From the NCBI RefSeq assembly GCF_044324785.1, contig NZ_CP172127.1: DNA of 64,000 nt; one strand, given 5' to 3'. Origin of the DNA: Escherichia coli (GTDB taxonomy: Bacteria > Pseudomonadota > Gammaproteobacteria > Enterobacterales > Enterobacteriaceae). The translations under genes were made by a program, and so were the position numbers. Below, one piece after another: positions 52,426-62,138 of this stretch. Numbering within the stretch: position 1 is the stretch's first letter; each line of letters begins with the position of its first letter. Below the pieces are notes generated by a model. The model saw only the letters and a list, made by a program, of their open reading frames with translations. It had not been told where the DNA came from and ran no database searches.

Positions 52426-52578
52426 TACCGTGTTCCCGACAGACGACTCGGTGAAAAAAGTGGTGTGGCTGGCAATCCAGTCTGCGTCCCAGAAATGGAC
52501 GATGCCGTTGAAGGACTGGCGAATGGCAATGAGCCGCTTTATTATCGAGTTCGGTGACCGCCTGGACGGTCACTTCTG
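52426..52578 (+). pseudogene. IS256-family transposase C-terminal fragment (last about 50 aa), abutting the IS1 right end
   Basis: VFPTDDSVKKVVWLAIQSASQKWTMPLKDWRMAMSRFIIEFGDRLDGHF-stop. Confidence 0.75.
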
Positions 52579-52848
52579 AGAAAAGGCATTTACACAGAAT
52601 CCTAAACAGGCTCATTCAGACAGCTTTTTATTTCACTATGGCTATCCCAGAACAATCAGTACAAATAATAAAAGACATATCACAGCAACACTCCACACTG
52701 ACAGCGCAAAAATAAATGCCGCCTTTGTTATCTTCATATACAAGCAACCTGTCCTGATAATCACCAGCTCATGTTTTATTCTTAACCATTCGTCACAAAT
52801 ACAACAAAAAATAACAGCAGCAGCACCGATATCACAATATAAGATACA

Positions 52849-53304
52849 TTATTCAACACCTGAATCCCCCGCCGCTTCTCTCCCCTTTATAAAACGCCCC
52901 TTCCGGAATCCAGACCGCTGCAGTGCACGACGAAGATGACCGTATACCGTCTTGTCATTCTGCCCCGTCTCTTCTGTAATCTCCGCAATACTTAAACCTC
53001 TGTAATACCGGTTCAGTAACGCTCTGCGCTCTTCCAGCGTCAACACACCTCCGGCCGCTCTCAGATTCAGCATCGACTTATTCAGAATACAGCAGGCCTC
53101 TCCGGTAAAAAGAATACGAACAATATCTGTATACTCATCATCACAGAATACAAAATAATATCTGAATGACCTGCCTGACTGCACCCTTCTTCTGTCTGAT
53201 ATGGCATCTTCTATATATCTGATTCGACTGCTTACGGTTCCAAATACCTCTCGCAGGGCTTTTTCAAAATAAATATCTCTCGTCGCCAGGATTATATCCA
53301 GCAT
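52849..53304 (-). CDS. LuxR/FixJ-type HTH transcriptional regulator
   Basis: 151-aa ORF; C-terminal LTLEERRALLNRYYRGLSIAEITEETGQNDKTVYGHLRRA resembles a LuxR-type HTH; N-terminal domain unassigned. Confidence 0.55.
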   Translation of the reverse strand: MLDIILATRDIYFEKALREVFGTVSSRIRYIEDAISDRRRVQSGRSFRYYFVFCDDEYTDIVRILFTGEACCILNKSMLNLRAAGGVLTLEERRALLNRYYRGLSIAEITEETGQNDKTVYGHLRRALQRSGFRKGRFIKGREAAGDSGVE

Positions 53305-53365
53305 CTCTGTACCTCATTATATCCCGGGGGACTCCCCCCGGGACAGATATCTAAATCCTGACCTG

Positions 53366-54631
53366 TCAGAACTCAAAATTCACACCAGCATTCCACGATG
53401 CGGATGACCCACCTGCAGCAACTGCAACTTTTCCTGCCACATTCTCTGTGAAACGGTAGCCCACGCCCACCGCAATGGCCTGCTCATCACGGTAACCACC
53501 AACGGCTGCTGTCGCGTTAAATTTTCCAACACTGTATGGCTGGAAAAGACCGGCCAGTGCCGCGCTCTGGGCTGCACTCTCCCTTAACTCCTTCCGGTTC
53601 TCTTTAATCTGCTCCTGCATATTATTCATTCTCTCTGTCGCCATCTTCTGCCAGGCTTCCGTCAAATCCAGACGATGACTGTTATTCCTTATCGCTGCTG
53701 TATTTGAGGCTATTGCTGCATCCGTCTGCGCCCTGTTCTTCACAAGCACATCGCTGAGATGTTCTGCCTGGCTTTTCGCTTCTTTACGGGCATCCCGTAC
53801 ACTTTTATCTGTATAAGCCCGGGAAACCTGAACTGTTTCATCCGCTTTTTCTTTTATTTCATCCTGAAGAGCAAGAGAAGATGCATCCGTATACGCCACC
53901 GCTGCCGATGTGCCTGCAATAATATCCCTGCTGAGTTCATCACGTACTGCTGTAACCTGACTGTCAGTATGAGCACGGGCATCTCTGTATACACCGCCTA
54001 TCTCACCGCGCAGGGCATCCCCCGACACCCGTACAGCATCTGCAATGGCGTTGTCCATCTGTCCTTTTGTGGCCGCATCACTATCCTTAACACCATCTGA
54101 AACATTTATAATCCGGCGGGTTTCCGGTGCTCCTTTGACACTCTCTCCATATCCCTCAGGCCCGGCACCAACAGATACCACGTTATTTTCTCCCGACACC
54201 TGTGAGCCATGGCCCAGAGCTACAGAACTGGTAGAATCCTGCACAGATGAAAACGCACCAATTGCCGAGCTCTGACGAGAAGAAATAAGTGACGCTTCTT
54301 TTCCTGCAACAGTCCCCCATTCAGAGTCAGCAATAAGTGCATCATGCCCCAGACTCACACTTCCCGGAGAGTTCACAACACCAGAATTATTCCCCAAAAG
54401 CACAGTCCTGTTTGAGTCTAATAAAAAAGAATCATCACCAATCAACCATACATTTCTTACTTTATCAATCGAACGGCCAGCTACTGATTCTCCAACAAGA
54501 AAGCTATTATCTTCGCCAGGTTCAATCGGTCCGATTAAAATATCCTGAGCCTGAGCCTGAGCCGAGAGCAGCAGGGCCACACTCACTGCCAGCGCGCTTT
54601 TCTTTAAAAAAGCATCACGTCTTTTAAGCAT
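53366..54631 (-). CDS. Trimeric autotransporter adhesin, YadA/Eib-like
   Basis: Signal peptide [28 protein letters not shown]; coiled-coil stalk; C-terminal YadA-type anchor ([42 protein letters not shown]...GVNFEF); the track ORF starts 54 bp earlier. Confidence 0.8.
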
Positions 54632-56780: not shown

Positions 56781-57322
56781 TAAAGAACCTGCTGGTCCTG
56801 CCATTAATATTACCTGCTGATTGCTTCACATCCGGATTCCTCGCACTGCGCGCGGGTTATTGTTTCGTTTTCGGCCACGGGGTCGCCAGGGCTCTGTTTG
56901 CAGGCCATGATGGCCTGACCTGTACTGTTTCTCAGGCACTGAGATGTCCGTTTACGCCATTTGTTCCCGGATATCCTTAACCTCTGACGTTTGTTCCCTG
57001 CCCCTCTGTCTGATAACGAATACGCTCACAACGCACAGTACTGAACAATACCGACAACAACATGTCTTACATGAAATTCGCTGTAACATCCACCGGAAAA
57101 CATTTTCAGATATCGGATGAGGTACTACTTCCATTGACAGCGCGAGGTAACAAAATTGATGGTAACTCTGACCATTAACCGTAAACCGCAGGGTATTTTC
57201 AGTAAATCACCGGCAACGCCGCTGCAGAATAAAACGGACACAGCATACAAAATGAAGGCCGGTGACCAGATACCACAGTTGAACGATAAACAGAAACCTG
57301 CTGATAAAACACCGTGGCGACA

Positions 57323-57667
57323 TGACAAAACGCCAGAGCAAAAACCGTAAGCGCATTATTCGTCTTGTGGAACTCTGGCCTGAGTCATTCAACCGGGAAA
57401 AAAACAAAACCACTTAAAGTGGGGATACCTGACGACCTGATACAGGATATCGCCATCCGAGAACTGGCGTTTGGCGCTGGTACATTACATGCAGCAGTGG
57501 CGTCTTATGTGCAGTCTCCGCGCTATTACCGTGCGTTAATAGCAGGTGGCGCCCGTTACAACCTGAACGGTCAGCCGTGCGGGGAAGTGACACCACAGGA
57601 ACAGAAAGAGGCAGAGACCCGTTTAATGATGCTGAATGACCGACGAAAAGACAGAAAACCTCGTTGA
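57323..57667 (+). pseudogene. ProQ/FinO-domain RNA-binding protein gene, frameshifted after about 30 codons
   Basis: MTKRQSKNRKRIIRLVELWPESFNREKNKTT-stop, then in another frame PLKVGIPDDLIQDIAIRELAFGAGTLHAAVASYVQSPRYYRALIAGGARYNLNGQPCGEVTPQEQKEAE. Confidence 0.5.
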
Positions 57668-57684: not shown

Positions 57685-58422
57685 TCACTGAGCTGTAATC
57701 AATGTACAGCGCTGTACCGGGCGATGGGTAATACCGGTCACAACCGGTAACCCCAGAGACAATGCAACTGTTTTTAACGCAATATACTGGCCGGATGTAT
57801 CACCCCGGGCAGCCTGAAAACACCTTTCCACCCGGCATTGTCCGTCAGCACTTATCACCCGCCATGTCTGTTGCAATAAATCCACCCGTTGCGAACATTC
57901 TTCATCAACCGTGGCACTGACCCGTGGATGGCAAATGCTCGTCTGGCTGAGCAGCAACAGGCATCGCATTGTTGCTCCTCCATGTTGTTCCCGCAACCAG
58001 CGTAATACCACCGGTGGTGCTGGACTGGCCGTGTGATTACGTTCAGTAATACGCTCGTGCACCTGTCGGTAAAAGGAAGTACAGAATGCATGAATCTGTT
58101 GTCCGTTGATGTTTCCTTCTGCCGAATGGAGTGTGAAGTGGACGGCCAGCAGACGCGGCCAGTGATCCACCGCCTGCTGAATAAAACGCCGGATTTCCAC
58201 CGGCTCTGAAAGTACGGTTTCGGTTATTTGCACGATTTGATCCCCTTGAATGTTGCTGAACCGGTGTCGGTACGCAGGAAAGCACGCCGAGACCGGTACG
58301 ATGCCTGTTACAGCGAAGAACGAGGAATGACAGACGGGGGCAGCAGGTCGCCAGCACCAGGGACAGGGCTGATTTCCACAATACCAACGCTGGTATTTTG
58401 CACATTGCCAGCGTACCGGCAT
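57685..58422 (-). CDS. Hypothetical island protein downstream of alpA (paralog fragment at 23000..23567)
   Basis: Track ORF 57685..58479 overlaps alpA, so the start is probably later; a second long ORF is open in another frame over the same DNA (57855..58091), so the frame is uncertain. Confidence 0.35.
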   Translation of the reverse strand: MPVRWQCAKYQRWYCGNQPCPWCWRPAAPVCHSSFFAVTGIVPVSACFPAYRHRFSNIQGDQIVQITETVLSEPVEIRRFIQQAVDHWPRLLAVHFTLHSAEGNINGQQIHAFCTSFYRQVHERITERNHTASPAPPVVLRWLREQHGGATMRCLLLLSQTSICHPRVSATVDEECSQRVDLLQQTWRVISADGQCRVERCFQAARGDTSGQYIALKTVALSLGLPVVTGITHRPVQRCTLITAQ

Positions 58423-58738: not shown

Positions 58739-59341
58739 TCAGAGCTGGCCTGCTACGGGATACCAGGGATTACCGGCGAGGTAACGGGCTTCCGGATCGC
58801 GCACACCACGACGATCGCGGGCGAAATCACTGAACGCCCATATCAGCTCTTTGAGTCTCTCTTCGCAGTCCGGTGAACGGGGATCCAGCAGCACATCCCG
58901 GGTAATCTGCTTCTGGTACGGTGCCGCTTCACCCGGTGACGCGAAGCCCAGTACGTTGCTCCAGGCATCCAGAATCAGCCGATCCAGTTCAGGGCCGTCG
59001 AAATATTCCTCCCTGACGCACAGCACCACGTGGTATTCCGGTTTTTCAGGATGACGAGTCAGGAGCCAGCAGAGATCACGTCCGGGGGTTGCATTCATCA
59101 GCGCACTGACGGTTTCGATAAAGGCCATACCGAACCAGGTTTTTCTGTCGCTGAAGATGTTGCCATGTTCCCCCGGCAGACGAAGCAGGATCCGCCGTAT
59201 TCGGGAGCAGGGCTGCTCACGCAGCGCACGCTCAAGGACACCGATAACTTTGCTCTGATAAGATGGCCAGAAGGGCGCCATGCTATAGTCGAAATAAGGG
59301 ATAGCATTCATAAGATATGTTCCGTTATACGCAGCCCACAA
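58739..59341 (-). pseudogene. Inovirus-Gp2-like (YagK/YfjJ-family) gene, 5' end degenerate
   Basis: Contains KPEYHVVLCVREEYFDG (compare HYHVILLLNKDTW in the neighbour); the conserved upstream leader is present at 59471..59535 but the ATG after it is lost. Confidence 0.5.
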
Positions 59342-59667
59342 CGCGTCCTGCCCGTGGATGCGCTGACGTGTTATGGCTTGCGTATGGGGTTGATGGAATA
59401 AGTGAAAAACCGCGGCAGAACGGGAAGATCAGGTAACCGACAAGGGACAGAACACCGGATGCAGGTTCAGAATGAATGATCTCCGTTGACTTCGGTTCAC
59501 ATCATTAAGCAGGACAGTAAGGTTTTACCGACGGAGTGTTTCCAGGAGCGAAAGCAGAGAAAAATACCGTTGCATGACTTCAGGACGACTTTTTCAGAAA
59601 ACGAGCTAAGGGCGTCAGCCAACGTCCTGTAGCATAAGCTCAGGCACCGGATGTCGTTTTACAGGGC

Positions 59668-60399
59668 TCACCTGCCATCCAGTAGACGCCCCGGCCCACG
59701 ACTGCAACCATAATTACGTTGCCCGGAACCGTTATGCAACTTCGTTTCATATTTCACGAGATAACTGGCTCTGTTCCGGGCTTTCTGCATCGCTTCCACA
59801 TCACCACGCTTGACCCAGAGCACAGCGGATTCACCCGGCTTTTTGTCTGAAGCCTTCCTGGTATCAGAACATCCACCCGACAAAGGCGTATCATCGGAAG
59901 AAGGGCGAGCATCAGATGATGTCGGTTTACGGAAAGGCGTCCGCCTGGAAAAATGAACCAGTCCATTACCCTGCCAGGGCTCAAGATGCAGAGCACTACA
60001 CCATGCCAGCTTGATCAGTGTCGCCAGCGAAGAAGGAACGGTGAAATCCCCTGGCGAGCACCAGGTATCTTTGTTGAGCAGCAATATCACGTGATAATGT
60101 TTCCTGCCTTTTTCCTTGCCAAACTCCCGGCACCAGAAATAACGCAGAGTGGTTGCACGCACACGCTTGTTGGCACGTCGTTTTTTCCGCTGGTAAGCCT
60201 GAATTTTGGCTTTCAGGGATGCAAAAAAACGAGAAATCACCGCTGAATCCGGATCGGGATCCATGATGGTGACAGGCATATACTCAGGGAAACGTAAATC
60301 CACCCGGATTAACGAGACGGCACGGTGCTGCGCCAGGGCACTGTCGAGAAGGCTGTCAAAACGGGATAACCAGTAAGCATTATGTATTGGTTGATTCAT
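59668..60399 (-). CDS. Inovirus-Gp2-like (YagK/YfjJ-family) protein
   Basis: 243-aa ORF with RBS GGAGAT 10 bp before the ATG; motif RKHYHVILLLNKDTW typical of this island-associated family. Confidence 0.65.
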   Translation of the reverse strand: MNQPIHNAYWLSRFDSLLDSALAQHRAVSLIRVDLRFPEYMPVTIMDPDPDSAVISRFFASLKAKIQAYQRKKRRANKRVRATTLRYFWCREFGKEKGRKHYHVILLLNKDTWCSPGDFTVPSSLATLIKLAWCSALHLEPWQGNGLVHFSRRTPFRKPTSSDARPSSDDTPLSGGCSDTRKASDKKPGESAVLWVKRGDVEAMQKARNRASYLVKYETKLHNGSGQRNYGCSRGPGRLLDGR

Positions 60400-61319
60400 G
60401 ATGAGAGATCTCCGTTGATTTGGATTGACTTCACATCATTAATCACCGCAGTAAAACTTTACGGCGTCCTGTCATTAAGCAACACCAGTGGCTCCTGATT
60501 AGAACAGAATGAGTTTCCCACGAACAAAAAGACAAACCTACACGCAGGGTAAAAACACGCAACAACAGCATGAATGGATTTGAAAACAATATGGATGACG
60601 AAAAATGTCAAAAGTGAAACGGATCAACAGAACGTGCAAACAAAACGTCAGAAACGCAATCAGAGCACTTTCTGGCGCTGTGAATCAACAACAACACCAA
60701 AACCTACAGCTTAACCACATTACTCAATCACGAATGCGAATGACACGTTTAAAACCTGTTTACAGATAACGCCGTAACACGATCATCCCCATCACCATCA
60801 GAATCGATTTTCTCATCCCGAAAATGTTACGTTTCACTACGCACCATAAAAACGATTAACCATCGATAACGTAAATCTCATCTGAATCAAAAAACCAAAA
60901 CCAATCATCACACTTTCGCAATGCAAGAAGAAAAACCACATCATGACGAAAACAATGACCTTACATGAAAAAGCAAAACGTCAGGAATCGTTAATGCCTC
61001 AATCTGATTGTTATCAAAACATCCAGAAAGTCGTTTAACAGAATCGTCGTAAGCACATCGAAAAGAACGTCAGATCACCTCAGGAAAGTTCGGGTTGATT
61101 TAGCGTAAAGATACTTTTCTCAGCTTAACGTCGAAACACAAACCAAAAACCACAAACAACCAAAGCTCAGGAAAGGTTAAACGTCACATCAGTAAAATCG
61201 AATAGCAGATTGATTGCTTAAACAGAAAGGTTTTACAGCAGCTTTAAACTGATTTTAGCTAACGTAAAGATTTACTAAACTGGATGAGTTTCAGACAAAG
61301 CAATGTGTACAGCAATGCT

Positions 61320-61500
61320 TAATGAAAACACTTATAGGGCTGTTTATGAAAACACGTGTATGTCTGGTAAAACACTTAGTAGAAAATACGTGTATAACAC
61401 TTACTGAAATGCTTAGTAAAAATACTTAGTAAAATATGTGTAGAATTATCTATTTAAAAAGATATGTATATAACACTTAATAAAAACATGTGTATATAGT
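61320..61500. repeat. Cluster of short direct repeats and palindromes (iteron-like)
   Basis: AACACTTA(G/C)T at about 61323, 61367, 61403, 61468; CTTAGTAAAA at 61371, 61410, 61423; palindromes ACACGTGT (61349), ATACGTGTAT (61385), ACATGT (61485). Confidence 0.4.
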
Positions 61501-62138
61501 ATCATACCGACATTCTCAACATCTTCAGACTTCCATACATACTGGGTGTTGATTTCTCACTTTTACAGCCAGCATGGAGTTTTCTGTCCTAAAAACAGAG
61601 CAGATTTACTCTGGAATTATTTTTCTGCCCCCGTATTTCAGGCCCCAGAAAAGACAATCCGAAGCAAACCGTTTGTCAGCCTCCATATCATCTTTTACCC
61701 CCGGAAAGTGATCGCGTTTTACAACCAGAATGACAGCCATACTGATTATGTCGTCTCCCGGCCCCCTTCACATATAACATGCATGTCTGTCATTGCTTAC
61801 TGCTCCACATGACCGGATTTCACATACAGGATGCACATTCAGTGTTTTTATCGCCACTATAACAGACAGATTACTGTCGTCTTTACTCTTCAGATTGTTA
61901 ATCTGACCACAAGAACAGCCGAACGGCAAAACGCCCTCCACAAGGGGCACATGAACCATAGTTGATAGCATGTTTTTCCTAATCAAGGAATAGTTCAGGA
62001 ATATTTTATTGCATTAATAACTGGCGAATAATCGTTCTGTGAACACAAAATGCTTTTATTTGTAAATTTTATTGCATTGCACTCGTTTTATTGATATGGG
62101 GTTTAATAACAGATAACCCGGAAAGAAGGAGAAAACAG

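Follow-up and report, generated by a model that had tools for sequence, protein, structure and literature searches.

A largely unconstrained, A-rich non-coding spacer upstream of a HUH Rep-like gene in CP4-like islands of Escherichia coli

The origins of pMV158-type rolling-circle replication (RCR) plasmids, which combine a nic locus with the iterons of a bind locus, and the common region of geminiviruses, in which iterons accompany an invariant nonanucleotide, both place non-coding DNA beside a gene encoding a HUH Rep-like protein. A comparable arrangement is found in a CP4-like genomic island on the Escherichia coli chromosome, within a stretch of 64,000 nucleotides (nt) of contig NZ_CP172127.1 (assembly GCF_044324785.1), which we refer to as ‘the window’, with positions counted from its first letter. 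The window shares 99.9% identity with strain GPEC1040. We focus here on the tract at 60430–61290, which is situated immediately upstream of a YagK/YfjJ (‘inovirus Gp2’) gene on the minus strand (59668–60399; ‘Gp2’ in the following), just where an initial inspection of the DNA (the original prediction) had placed it, and which therefore represents the 5′ intergenic region of this gene. Weighing the evidence collected so far, we give an even chance to the reading that the HUH Rep-like gene has a control region that is origin-like or acts as an operator, within which the tract forms a spacer derived from repeats, confined to the E. coli lineage and under little constraint.

The likeness to pMV158-type plasmids and geminiviruses extends to lineage-varying short direct repeats and to a single short motif that does not change between distant lineages, with a fixed orientation relative to the gene. 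Unlike in those systems, however, (i) the invariant motif is a near-dyad that does not consistently sit in a hairpin loop, (ii) a 0.8-kb unconstrained spacer intervenes between iterons and gene in E. coli, (iii) the element is not a free replicon but is found integrated in chromosomal islands, and (iv) nicking and binding are putative here. The f1/M13 intergenic region upstream of gene II provides a second parallel, in that non-coding DNA is situated directly 5′ of a gene II-like nickase gene (with a G2P-related Pfam domain); yet the Ff region, ~500 nt in length, folds into strong hairpins that contain the packaging signal and both the minus and the plus origin, whereas the tract is nearly structure-free on both strands and has no DNA homologue among 50,697 phage records. 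Satellite phage P4 (ori/crr) shares the island context, with an AlpA/Vis-like helix-turn-helix (HTH) gene and YfjI, as well as short repeats in non-coding DNA, but P4 possesses the alpha primase-helicase and TGTTCACC iterons, neither of which is present here, where the associated protein is instead HUH nickase-like. The features of the locus are as follows.

60480–61290, unstranded: A-rich, G-poor spacer free of open reading frames (ORFs), apparently composed of ~90-nt repeats that have decayed, with an approximately neutral rate of evolution, E. coli lineage-specific
59668–60399, minus strand: YagK/YfjJ (‘inovirus Gp2’) gene, 243 amino acids (aa), candidate HUH Rep-like nickase (KHYHVILLL; YLVKYETK)
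60400–60479, minus strand: conserved proximal block, identity 0.95 versus 0.87 in the spacer, in which CTCC at 60410–60413 represents the minus-strand ribosome-binding site GGAG
61296–61500, unstranded: iteron array of 30% GC, with AAAAYAYGTGTATA and AAAAYACTTAGTA units, a 44-nt composite unit and varying copy number
61596–61613, unstranded: terminator-like hairpin CAGAG-N8-CTCTG with a T run on either strand, overlapping the conserved 12-mer
61608–61619, minus strand: 12-mer TAATTCCAGAGT, near-dyad TAAYTC-CA-GAGTNA, the sole exact match in the window; no conserved element of the Gp2 module lies further out

When compared with rolling-circle origins in general, the locus contains a Rep-like gene with HUH and Tyr motifs and a predicted HUH fold, and it contains iterons near the gene, which are located outside the core of the tract (61296–61500) and whose binding is putative. 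It does not conform to an iteron-type theta origin: DnaA boxes (TTWTNCACA) and the integration host factor (IHF) site (WATCAANNNNTTR) are absent from 60400–61640. The iteron array itself has a GC content of 30%.

Across 60400–61545 (1146 nt), no ORF of at least 60 aa exists in any frame; this is the longest such gap of the window, the runner-up measuring 1002 nt. The top strand of 60430–61290 consists of 40.0% A, 22.9% C, 15.7% G and 21.5% T, and the region exhibits the highest absolute AT skew (+0.31) among all 861-nt windows of the 64-kb stretch. Both the unusual lack of ORFs and the A/C-rich, G-poor top strand, as described in the original prediction, were thus confirmed.

A search for homologous regions next to Gp2-like genes in other islands, which had been proposed as a check, was clearly positive: homologues of the 1.16-kb stretch were found in 1877 of 5426 complete E. 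coli genomes (median of 2 copies, maximum of 8, ~3300 copies in all), nearly all of them chromosomal and essentially never annotated, with four matches on plasmids and none in phage DNA among 50,697 phage records. The tract begins at the Gp2 start codon in every locus inspected, and copies away from Gp2 were never found. A metagenome scan with a conserved 40-mer contributed 50 further loci, and the combined set, to which the comparisons of copies refer, amounts to 43 distinct full-length copies. In three variants that are common in E. coli (L146, L147 and L066), the segment 60577–60876 is swapped for ~1.15 kb carrying a 176-aa ORF; the replacement segment (1583–2736 of L146) encodes hypothetical protein WP_000778605, transcribed away from Gp2. 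Two apparent extensions of this distribution had to be discarded. First, CP4-57 and CP4-6 of K-12 are not carriers, since yfjJ and yagK possess neither the spacer nor an exact 12-mer. Second, the single protein match to Gp2 in a phage record (L148, OR844780.1; 41.5% identity) does not establish a phage origin: this record is an unverified, low-coverage 4.5-kb contig and is probably host or island DNA rather than phage. In the literature on YfjJ, YagK, inovirus Gp2 and PF11726, we found neither a functional study nor a description of this non-coding region.

The spacer is non-coding. No ORF of at least 25 aa is intact in more than 65% of the 43 copies (the best in 28), and 44 of the 61 distinct indels (gap runs) are not multiples of three. 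The 82-aa ‘hypothetical protein’ (WP_000573217) called within the tract in some genomes by the Prokaryotic Genome Annotation Pipeline (PGAP) is, in most copies, interrupted or read in a different frame.

The tract is, in addition, internally repetitive. Of the four sites listed in the original prediction for a recurring 8-mer, all are present, three of them within 1 nt of the given coordinate and the third displaced by 9 nt (61066 rather than 61075); AACGTCAG is found at 60644, 60977 and 61066, and AACGTCAC at 61180.

60644–60651, plus strand: first AACGTCAG site, reading AACACCAG in 42 of the 43 copies
60977–60984, plus strand: second AACGTCAG site, reading AACACCAG in a second haplotype group
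61066–61073, plus strand: third AACGTCAG site, reading CACGCCAG or CACACCAG in the second haplotype group
61180–61187, plus strand: fourth site, AACGTCAC, reading AACGTAAC in most copies

The word AACGTCAS, which was picked after inspecting the sequence, occurs four times versus 0.11 expected, and four occurrences were reached in 0 of 5000 dinucleotide-preserving shuffles of the region itself, while 60% of the shuffles hold some 8-mer at least three times. In total, however, 40 8-mers are seen at least twice in the region, with 19.5 expected (P = 0.0002), several pentamers (AACGT, TGATT, CGTAA) are enriched 4–7-fold (AACGT, 8 versus 1.9; TGATT, 5 versus 0.7), and two copies of GAAAACAAT are present (60582 and 60948; 0.05 expected). 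The recurrence of 8-mers and the enrichment of pentamers represent real internal repetition in the tract. Motif discovery with an EM-based finder, by contrast, yielded nothing but motifs of low information, which were disregarded.

On a larger scale, neither Tandem Repeats Finder (TRF) nor blastn detects a long repeat inside 60430–61290. Tile-versus-tile Smith-Waterman local alignment yields z-scores of 4.2–5.0 over dinucleotide shuffles and of 4.8–7.6 over composition-preserving block shuffles, and the best self-alignment pair of the 43-copy consensus scores 55, compared with 36–39 in shuffles. The consensus resolves into ~90-nt units, which are ~70% identical and share the common core ATCTGAATCAAAACAYCAGAAAC, in which the AACGTCAG motif is contained. 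The significant self-similarity and the ~90-nt units hence support a repeat array that is decayed rather than extant, so that the original suggestion of a decayed array of longer direct repeats is supported, weakly but significantly. The idea that the spacer descends from the iteron array as it now stands was considered as well and rejected, there being no similarity between the two (z = −0.5).

Comparison of the copies indicates how little of this sequence is maintained. Substitution-only pairwise identity is 0.87 in the spacer, 0.90 at the third codon positions of Gp2 and 0.95 in the 80 nt beside the start codon, and the density of rare variants per site is 0.265 in the spacer versus 0.173 at the third codon positions of Gp2. 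The columns of the AACGTCAG sites show no higher conservation than random spacer blocks (0.882 versus 0.870, P = 0.41), and most copies carry AACACCAG or CACGCCAG at these sites, from which it follows that the real word is AAC-RY-CAG. The spacer is largely unconstrained, a conserved array of AACGTCAG sites does not exist in these data, and the recurrence of AACGTCAG should not be read as an array of binding sites.

The strand asymmetry likewise appears to be a relic. The spectrum of rare variants is strand-symmetric (per site, G>A 0.237 versus C>T 0.229, and C>A 0.102 versus G>T 0.102), and the net flux erodes the skew, with T gaining 59 and losing 31 and C gaining 35 and losing 59. Recent variants thus reveal no mutational driver of the asymmetry, for which inheritance from an A-rich seed unit is the best reading. 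It is not a trait of the family, the mean AT skew of the interval between 12-mer and Gp2 being −0.01 in other genera (~20 loci).

The protein encoded next to the spacer (WP_096990875) matches Pfam families YagK_YfjJ_C and REP_ORF2-G2P and the replication-initiator families of PHROG, and it exhibits intact HUH and catalytic Tyr motifs together with a predicted HUH-nickase fold; Gp2 is therefore a HUH endonuclease-like protein. The motifs conserved across the family are RVDLRLP, KHYHVxLLLNKD (HUH) and RAxYLAKxxTK. Residues ~150–195 of Gp2 (~59815–59950) form a Ser-, Pro- and Asp-rich insertion of ~45 residues, which is of low complexity and has a predicted local distance difference test (pLDDT) score below 50; the insertion belongs to the E. 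coli 243-aa subfamily and is missing from the homologues of other genera.

The outermost element of the locus is shared far beyond E. coli. A genome-wide scan for relatives of Gp2, with a 9-sequence alignment as query, returned 75 loci, in which the 12-mer was sought with at most two mismatches and CCAGA retained; most matches were exact, and ~50 of the loci lack an exact copy. In ~20 loci from at least 13 genera (Tatumella, Kosakonia, Rosenbergiella, Limnobaculum, Budvicia, Klebsiella, Intestinirhabdus, Brenneria, Enterobacter, Providencia, Tolumonas, Rheinheimera and Colwellia), TAAYTCCAGAGT occurs once per locus, always on the Gp2-sense strand and 240–670 nt upstream of Gp2. Its flanks are not conserved across genera, and its hairpin partner is present in E. 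coli and a few others but otherwise not conserved. In E. coli the 12-mer is 1221 nt away from the Gp2 gene, as opposed to 240–670 nt elsewhere, and the extra DNA thus corresponds to the expansion of the iterons plus the A-rich spacer. The 12-mer is a candidate recognition or nick site of a Rep protein or a candidate operator, its dyad symmetry, as read from the sequence, suiting an operator equally well.

The iterons themselves vary in number: TRF reports a period of 13 with 5.2 copies, and the array spans 97–245 nt and 1–13 units across the 43 copies, with both gain and loss of units among homologues. Related AAAACAC/ACACATTTT-type repeats are found in islands of Providencia and Brenneria, and other genera possess their own lineage-specific short direct repeats downstream of the 12-mer. 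At the other end of the spacer, 60400–60479 is probably the core promoter and 5′ leader of Gp2, as judged from its conservation, the promoter matches found being weak; the block is duplicated at ~59436–59505, upstream of a decayed YagK/YfjJ paralogue. Homology among E. coli variants ends 7–10 nt past the 12-mer (~61630), where at least four unrelated right flanks start, and on the left it ends ~100 nt past the Gp2 stop codon (~59570). Given these breaks, Gp2 and its 1.2-kb upstream region behave as a discrete module of ~2.06 kb, the left flanks of which vary (YfjI, a restriction endonuclease, ireA or an acyltransferase). The original proposal of a protein-binding region belonging to a replication or regulation module is hence sustained in part: the context upstream of a HUH Rep-like gene fits, but the site-like elements, that is, the iterons and the 12-mer, are located outside the tract, and the AACGTCAG columns inside it are not distinguished by their conservation.

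We infer that, most likely, an A-rich unit of ~90 nt, with a core ...ATCTGAATCAAAACAYCAG(A/G)AA..., was amplified to yield the spacer, which would since have decayed at an approximately neutral rate. Such amplification and decay would explain why ORFs are lacking, why the word AACGTCAG/AACACCAG recurs and why the composition differs between strands, the asymmetry stemming from the seed and being eroded at present. On this reading, the spacer would have little or no sequence-specific function and, in a passive role, would separate the proximal promoter and leader of Gp2 (60400–60479) from the iteron array and the 12-mer (61608–61619). By analogy with RCR plasmids and geminiviruses, the Gp2 protein would bind the iterons and act at or near the 12-mer, either nicking the DNA there, so that the excised island is replicated or mobilised, or regulating its own expression.

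Several observations weigh against this reading. The alignments on which an origin by repeat amplification rests are weak, and the spacer and the present iteron array lack similarity. Nearly invariant blocks are found at 60683–60694, 60797–60808 and 60844–60892, and some of them may be real sites; the last of these served as search bait for the metagenome copies, in which its conservation is by construction, but it is also nearly invariant in 13 unbiased E. coli copies. The length of the spacer is held to 745–846 nt in the 43 copies despite many indels, which could reflect a constraint on length or composition. As the copies share ancestry, preserved composition is not independent evidence either way. 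Finally, the same sign of skew (T>A and G>C on the Gp2-sense strand) is observed in Providencia and Budvicia only, without sequence similarity, which hints at a common cause.

Such a cause could act at the level of RNA, an explanation that we regard as unlikely, albeit less so than those that follow. The promoter of Gp2 would then be located at the right end of the iterons (~61490–61530, minus strand), giving rise to a U/G-rich, C-poor leader of ~1.1 kb that escapes Rho, or else the C-rich, G-poor top strand would be transcribed as an antisense RNA terminated by Rho, with composition selected in the transcript. Overlapping divergent promoter-like sites do exist at 61477–61528, and the terminator-like hairpin just upstream would insulate such a promoter; yet the promoter scores are weak and do not exceed those of shuffles (2 found versus 5.7 expected), and the proximal block, which is conserved and duplicated before a paralogue without spacer, suggests that the real promoter is proximal. 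Promoter-like and terminator-like matches are weak, and no convincing promoter/terminator pair was identified for the spacer. The top strand contains a 300-nt bubble of C over G at 60640–60940 (C 23–31%, G 10–14%; C/G above 2) with almost no predicted structure, which would, if transcribed, match the composition of Rho utilization (rut) regions (at least 80 nt, C-rich, G-poor and unstructured); in contrast to rut regions, the dominant base of the tract is A and not C. The skew shared with Providencia and Budvicia is in line with selection on RNA, but most relatives lack it, there is no constraint on the sequence, and the insertion of a 1.15-kb gene is tolerated.

Searches for a structured RNA were equally unsupportive of the non-coding RNA that had originally been offered as one possibility. 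A scan with the covariance models of Rfam 15 at E ≤ 1 yielded no match in 60400–62090, and a match to PhotoRC-I inside the Gp2 gene was spurious (19.9 bits versus a gathering threshold of 45). Sliding-window minimum free energies on both strands correspond to z-scores of −1.5 to +1.3 relative to shuffles across the spacer, with one window at −2.4, and RNAalifold finds essentially no consensus structure in the spacer (0 to −5 on its top strand). The top strand is nearly structure-free in 60680–61000 (−5 to −10 kcal/mol per 120 nt), and Hfq-type (ARN)n runs are not enriched beyond composition, which likewise speaks against a regulatory RNA.

We consider it improbable, though worth stating, that the ~2.06-kb unit (~59570–61630) is an autonomous rolling-circle module of CP4-like islands, in which nicking of the 12-mer by Gp2 would set off replication of the excised island or its mobilisation, or which would itself move in the manner of IS91 or Helitrons. 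In that case, the A-rich spacer would hold the remains of former repeat arrays left by repeated turnover at the origin. As in IS91, ISCR and Helitron elements, a single HUH gene is located in a discrete unit with sharp homology edges, one of which lies beside a conserved short motif, and several copies of the unit occur per genome with variable flanks. Unlike for those elements, however, gene order around the module is broadly conserved, and modular recombination explains the flanks equally well.

Similarly improbable, in our judgement, is that the spacer consists of dispersed low-affinity sites, that is, AAC-RY-CAG(R)AA words present 4–6 times per copy and ~75–150 nt apart, which would be bound by Gp2, the AlpA-like HTH protein or a nucleoid protein and would assemble with the iterons into a nucleoprotein filament or loop that serves silencing, partition or the function of an origin. 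The pattern [AC]AC[AG][CT]CAG is indeed found 2–5 times in 43 of 43 copies at homologous positions, with a spacing of ~74–97 nt in the right half; transitions occur at the two central bases, between flanks (AAAAC..CAG) that do not vary; and both CAGRAA (6 versus 1.25 expected) and AACGT are over-represented. But the motif columns are not conserved above random spacer blocks, the sites reside within longer degenerate repeat units, which explain their recurrence without binding, and the word is absent from the relatives in other genera. Nor does the tract exhibit 10.5-bp phasing of A-tracts, a DnaA or IHF box, Chi, or high-affinity H-NS motifs; AAA has a weak periodicity of 8.25–8.5 nt. The Pseudomonas AlpA binding element (GGGACG; PMC9371919) concerns another protein family and another sequence and is not relevant here.

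We regard it as very unlikely that the composition is the mutational footprint of single-stranded DNA (ssDNA), namely of a Gp2-sense strand displaced during rolling-circle replication from the 12-mer and rendered T-rich and C-poor by C>T and G>T damage. A richness in T is known from ssDNA replicons, and the polarity is as expected, since the Gp2-sense strand invariably carries the 12-mer and the spacer is the first non-coding DNA downstream, with 40% T and 16% C on that strand. Against this, the symmetric spectrum of rare variants and the current erosion of the skew are not what such damage would leave, the depletion of A on that strand equals the enrichment of T, which deamination alone cannot yield, and the skew is missing in most relatives of the same architecture.

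That the tract derives from a protein-coding gene now in decay or from an inserted mobile element resembling a miniature inverted-repeat transposable element (MITE) is hardly credible, since the 82-aa PGAP call is disrupted in most copies, 40% A is not coding-like and the indels lack triplet periodicity, while the 14-nt inverted repeat that brackets the tract (60450–60463 and 61263–61276) does not exceed chance expectation and is interrupted in many copies by 13 inserted nt, and the tract never occurs away from Gp2.

The surroundings of the locus are those of a typical island backbone to the right, where two hypothetical genes are followed by genes for a GTPase, DUF932, antirestriction, RadC and YeeU/CbtA. 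The segment 61630–62090 is unannotated and 93–100% identical between several otherwise diverged copies, and small overlapping ORFs are present in this region on both strands (61546–61812, plus strand, 88 aa; 61768–61986, minus strand, 72 aa). Further left of Gp2 are an AlpA-like HTH gene and two more YagK/YfjJ paralogues, one at 58739–59341 (minus strand), whose ancestral start codon and HUH/Tyr motifs appear decayed, and a third family member at 57685–58233 (minus strand). They are accompanied by a frameshifted gene with a ProQ/FinO domain (57159–57667, plus strand); an RNA chaperone of the island would imply an RNA partner, and no such partner for this gene was identified. GC skew is most pronounced elsewhere in the window, reaching about −0.35 across 861 nt at ~52500–53600, where it covers a sigma-factor-like HTH gene and the 3′ part of a YadA-like adhesin gene.

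The tract itself is of modest interest, and it is the 12-mer, the iterons and the HUH gene that deserve attention. CP4-like islands carry adhesins, iron uptake systems, toxin-antitoxin pairs and defence genes, and they are present in a third of complete E. coli genomes, often in several copies. If the reading as an autonomous module were true, it would provide a function for the widespread YagK/YfjJ family and an origin of replication or mobilisation for islands that are now regarded as non-replicative. The occurrence of a 12-nt motif and iterons upstream of Gp2 genes from Escherichia to Colwellia, together with the predicted HUH fold of the Gp2 protein, provides a testable hypothesis in which this region serves as an origin or an operator.

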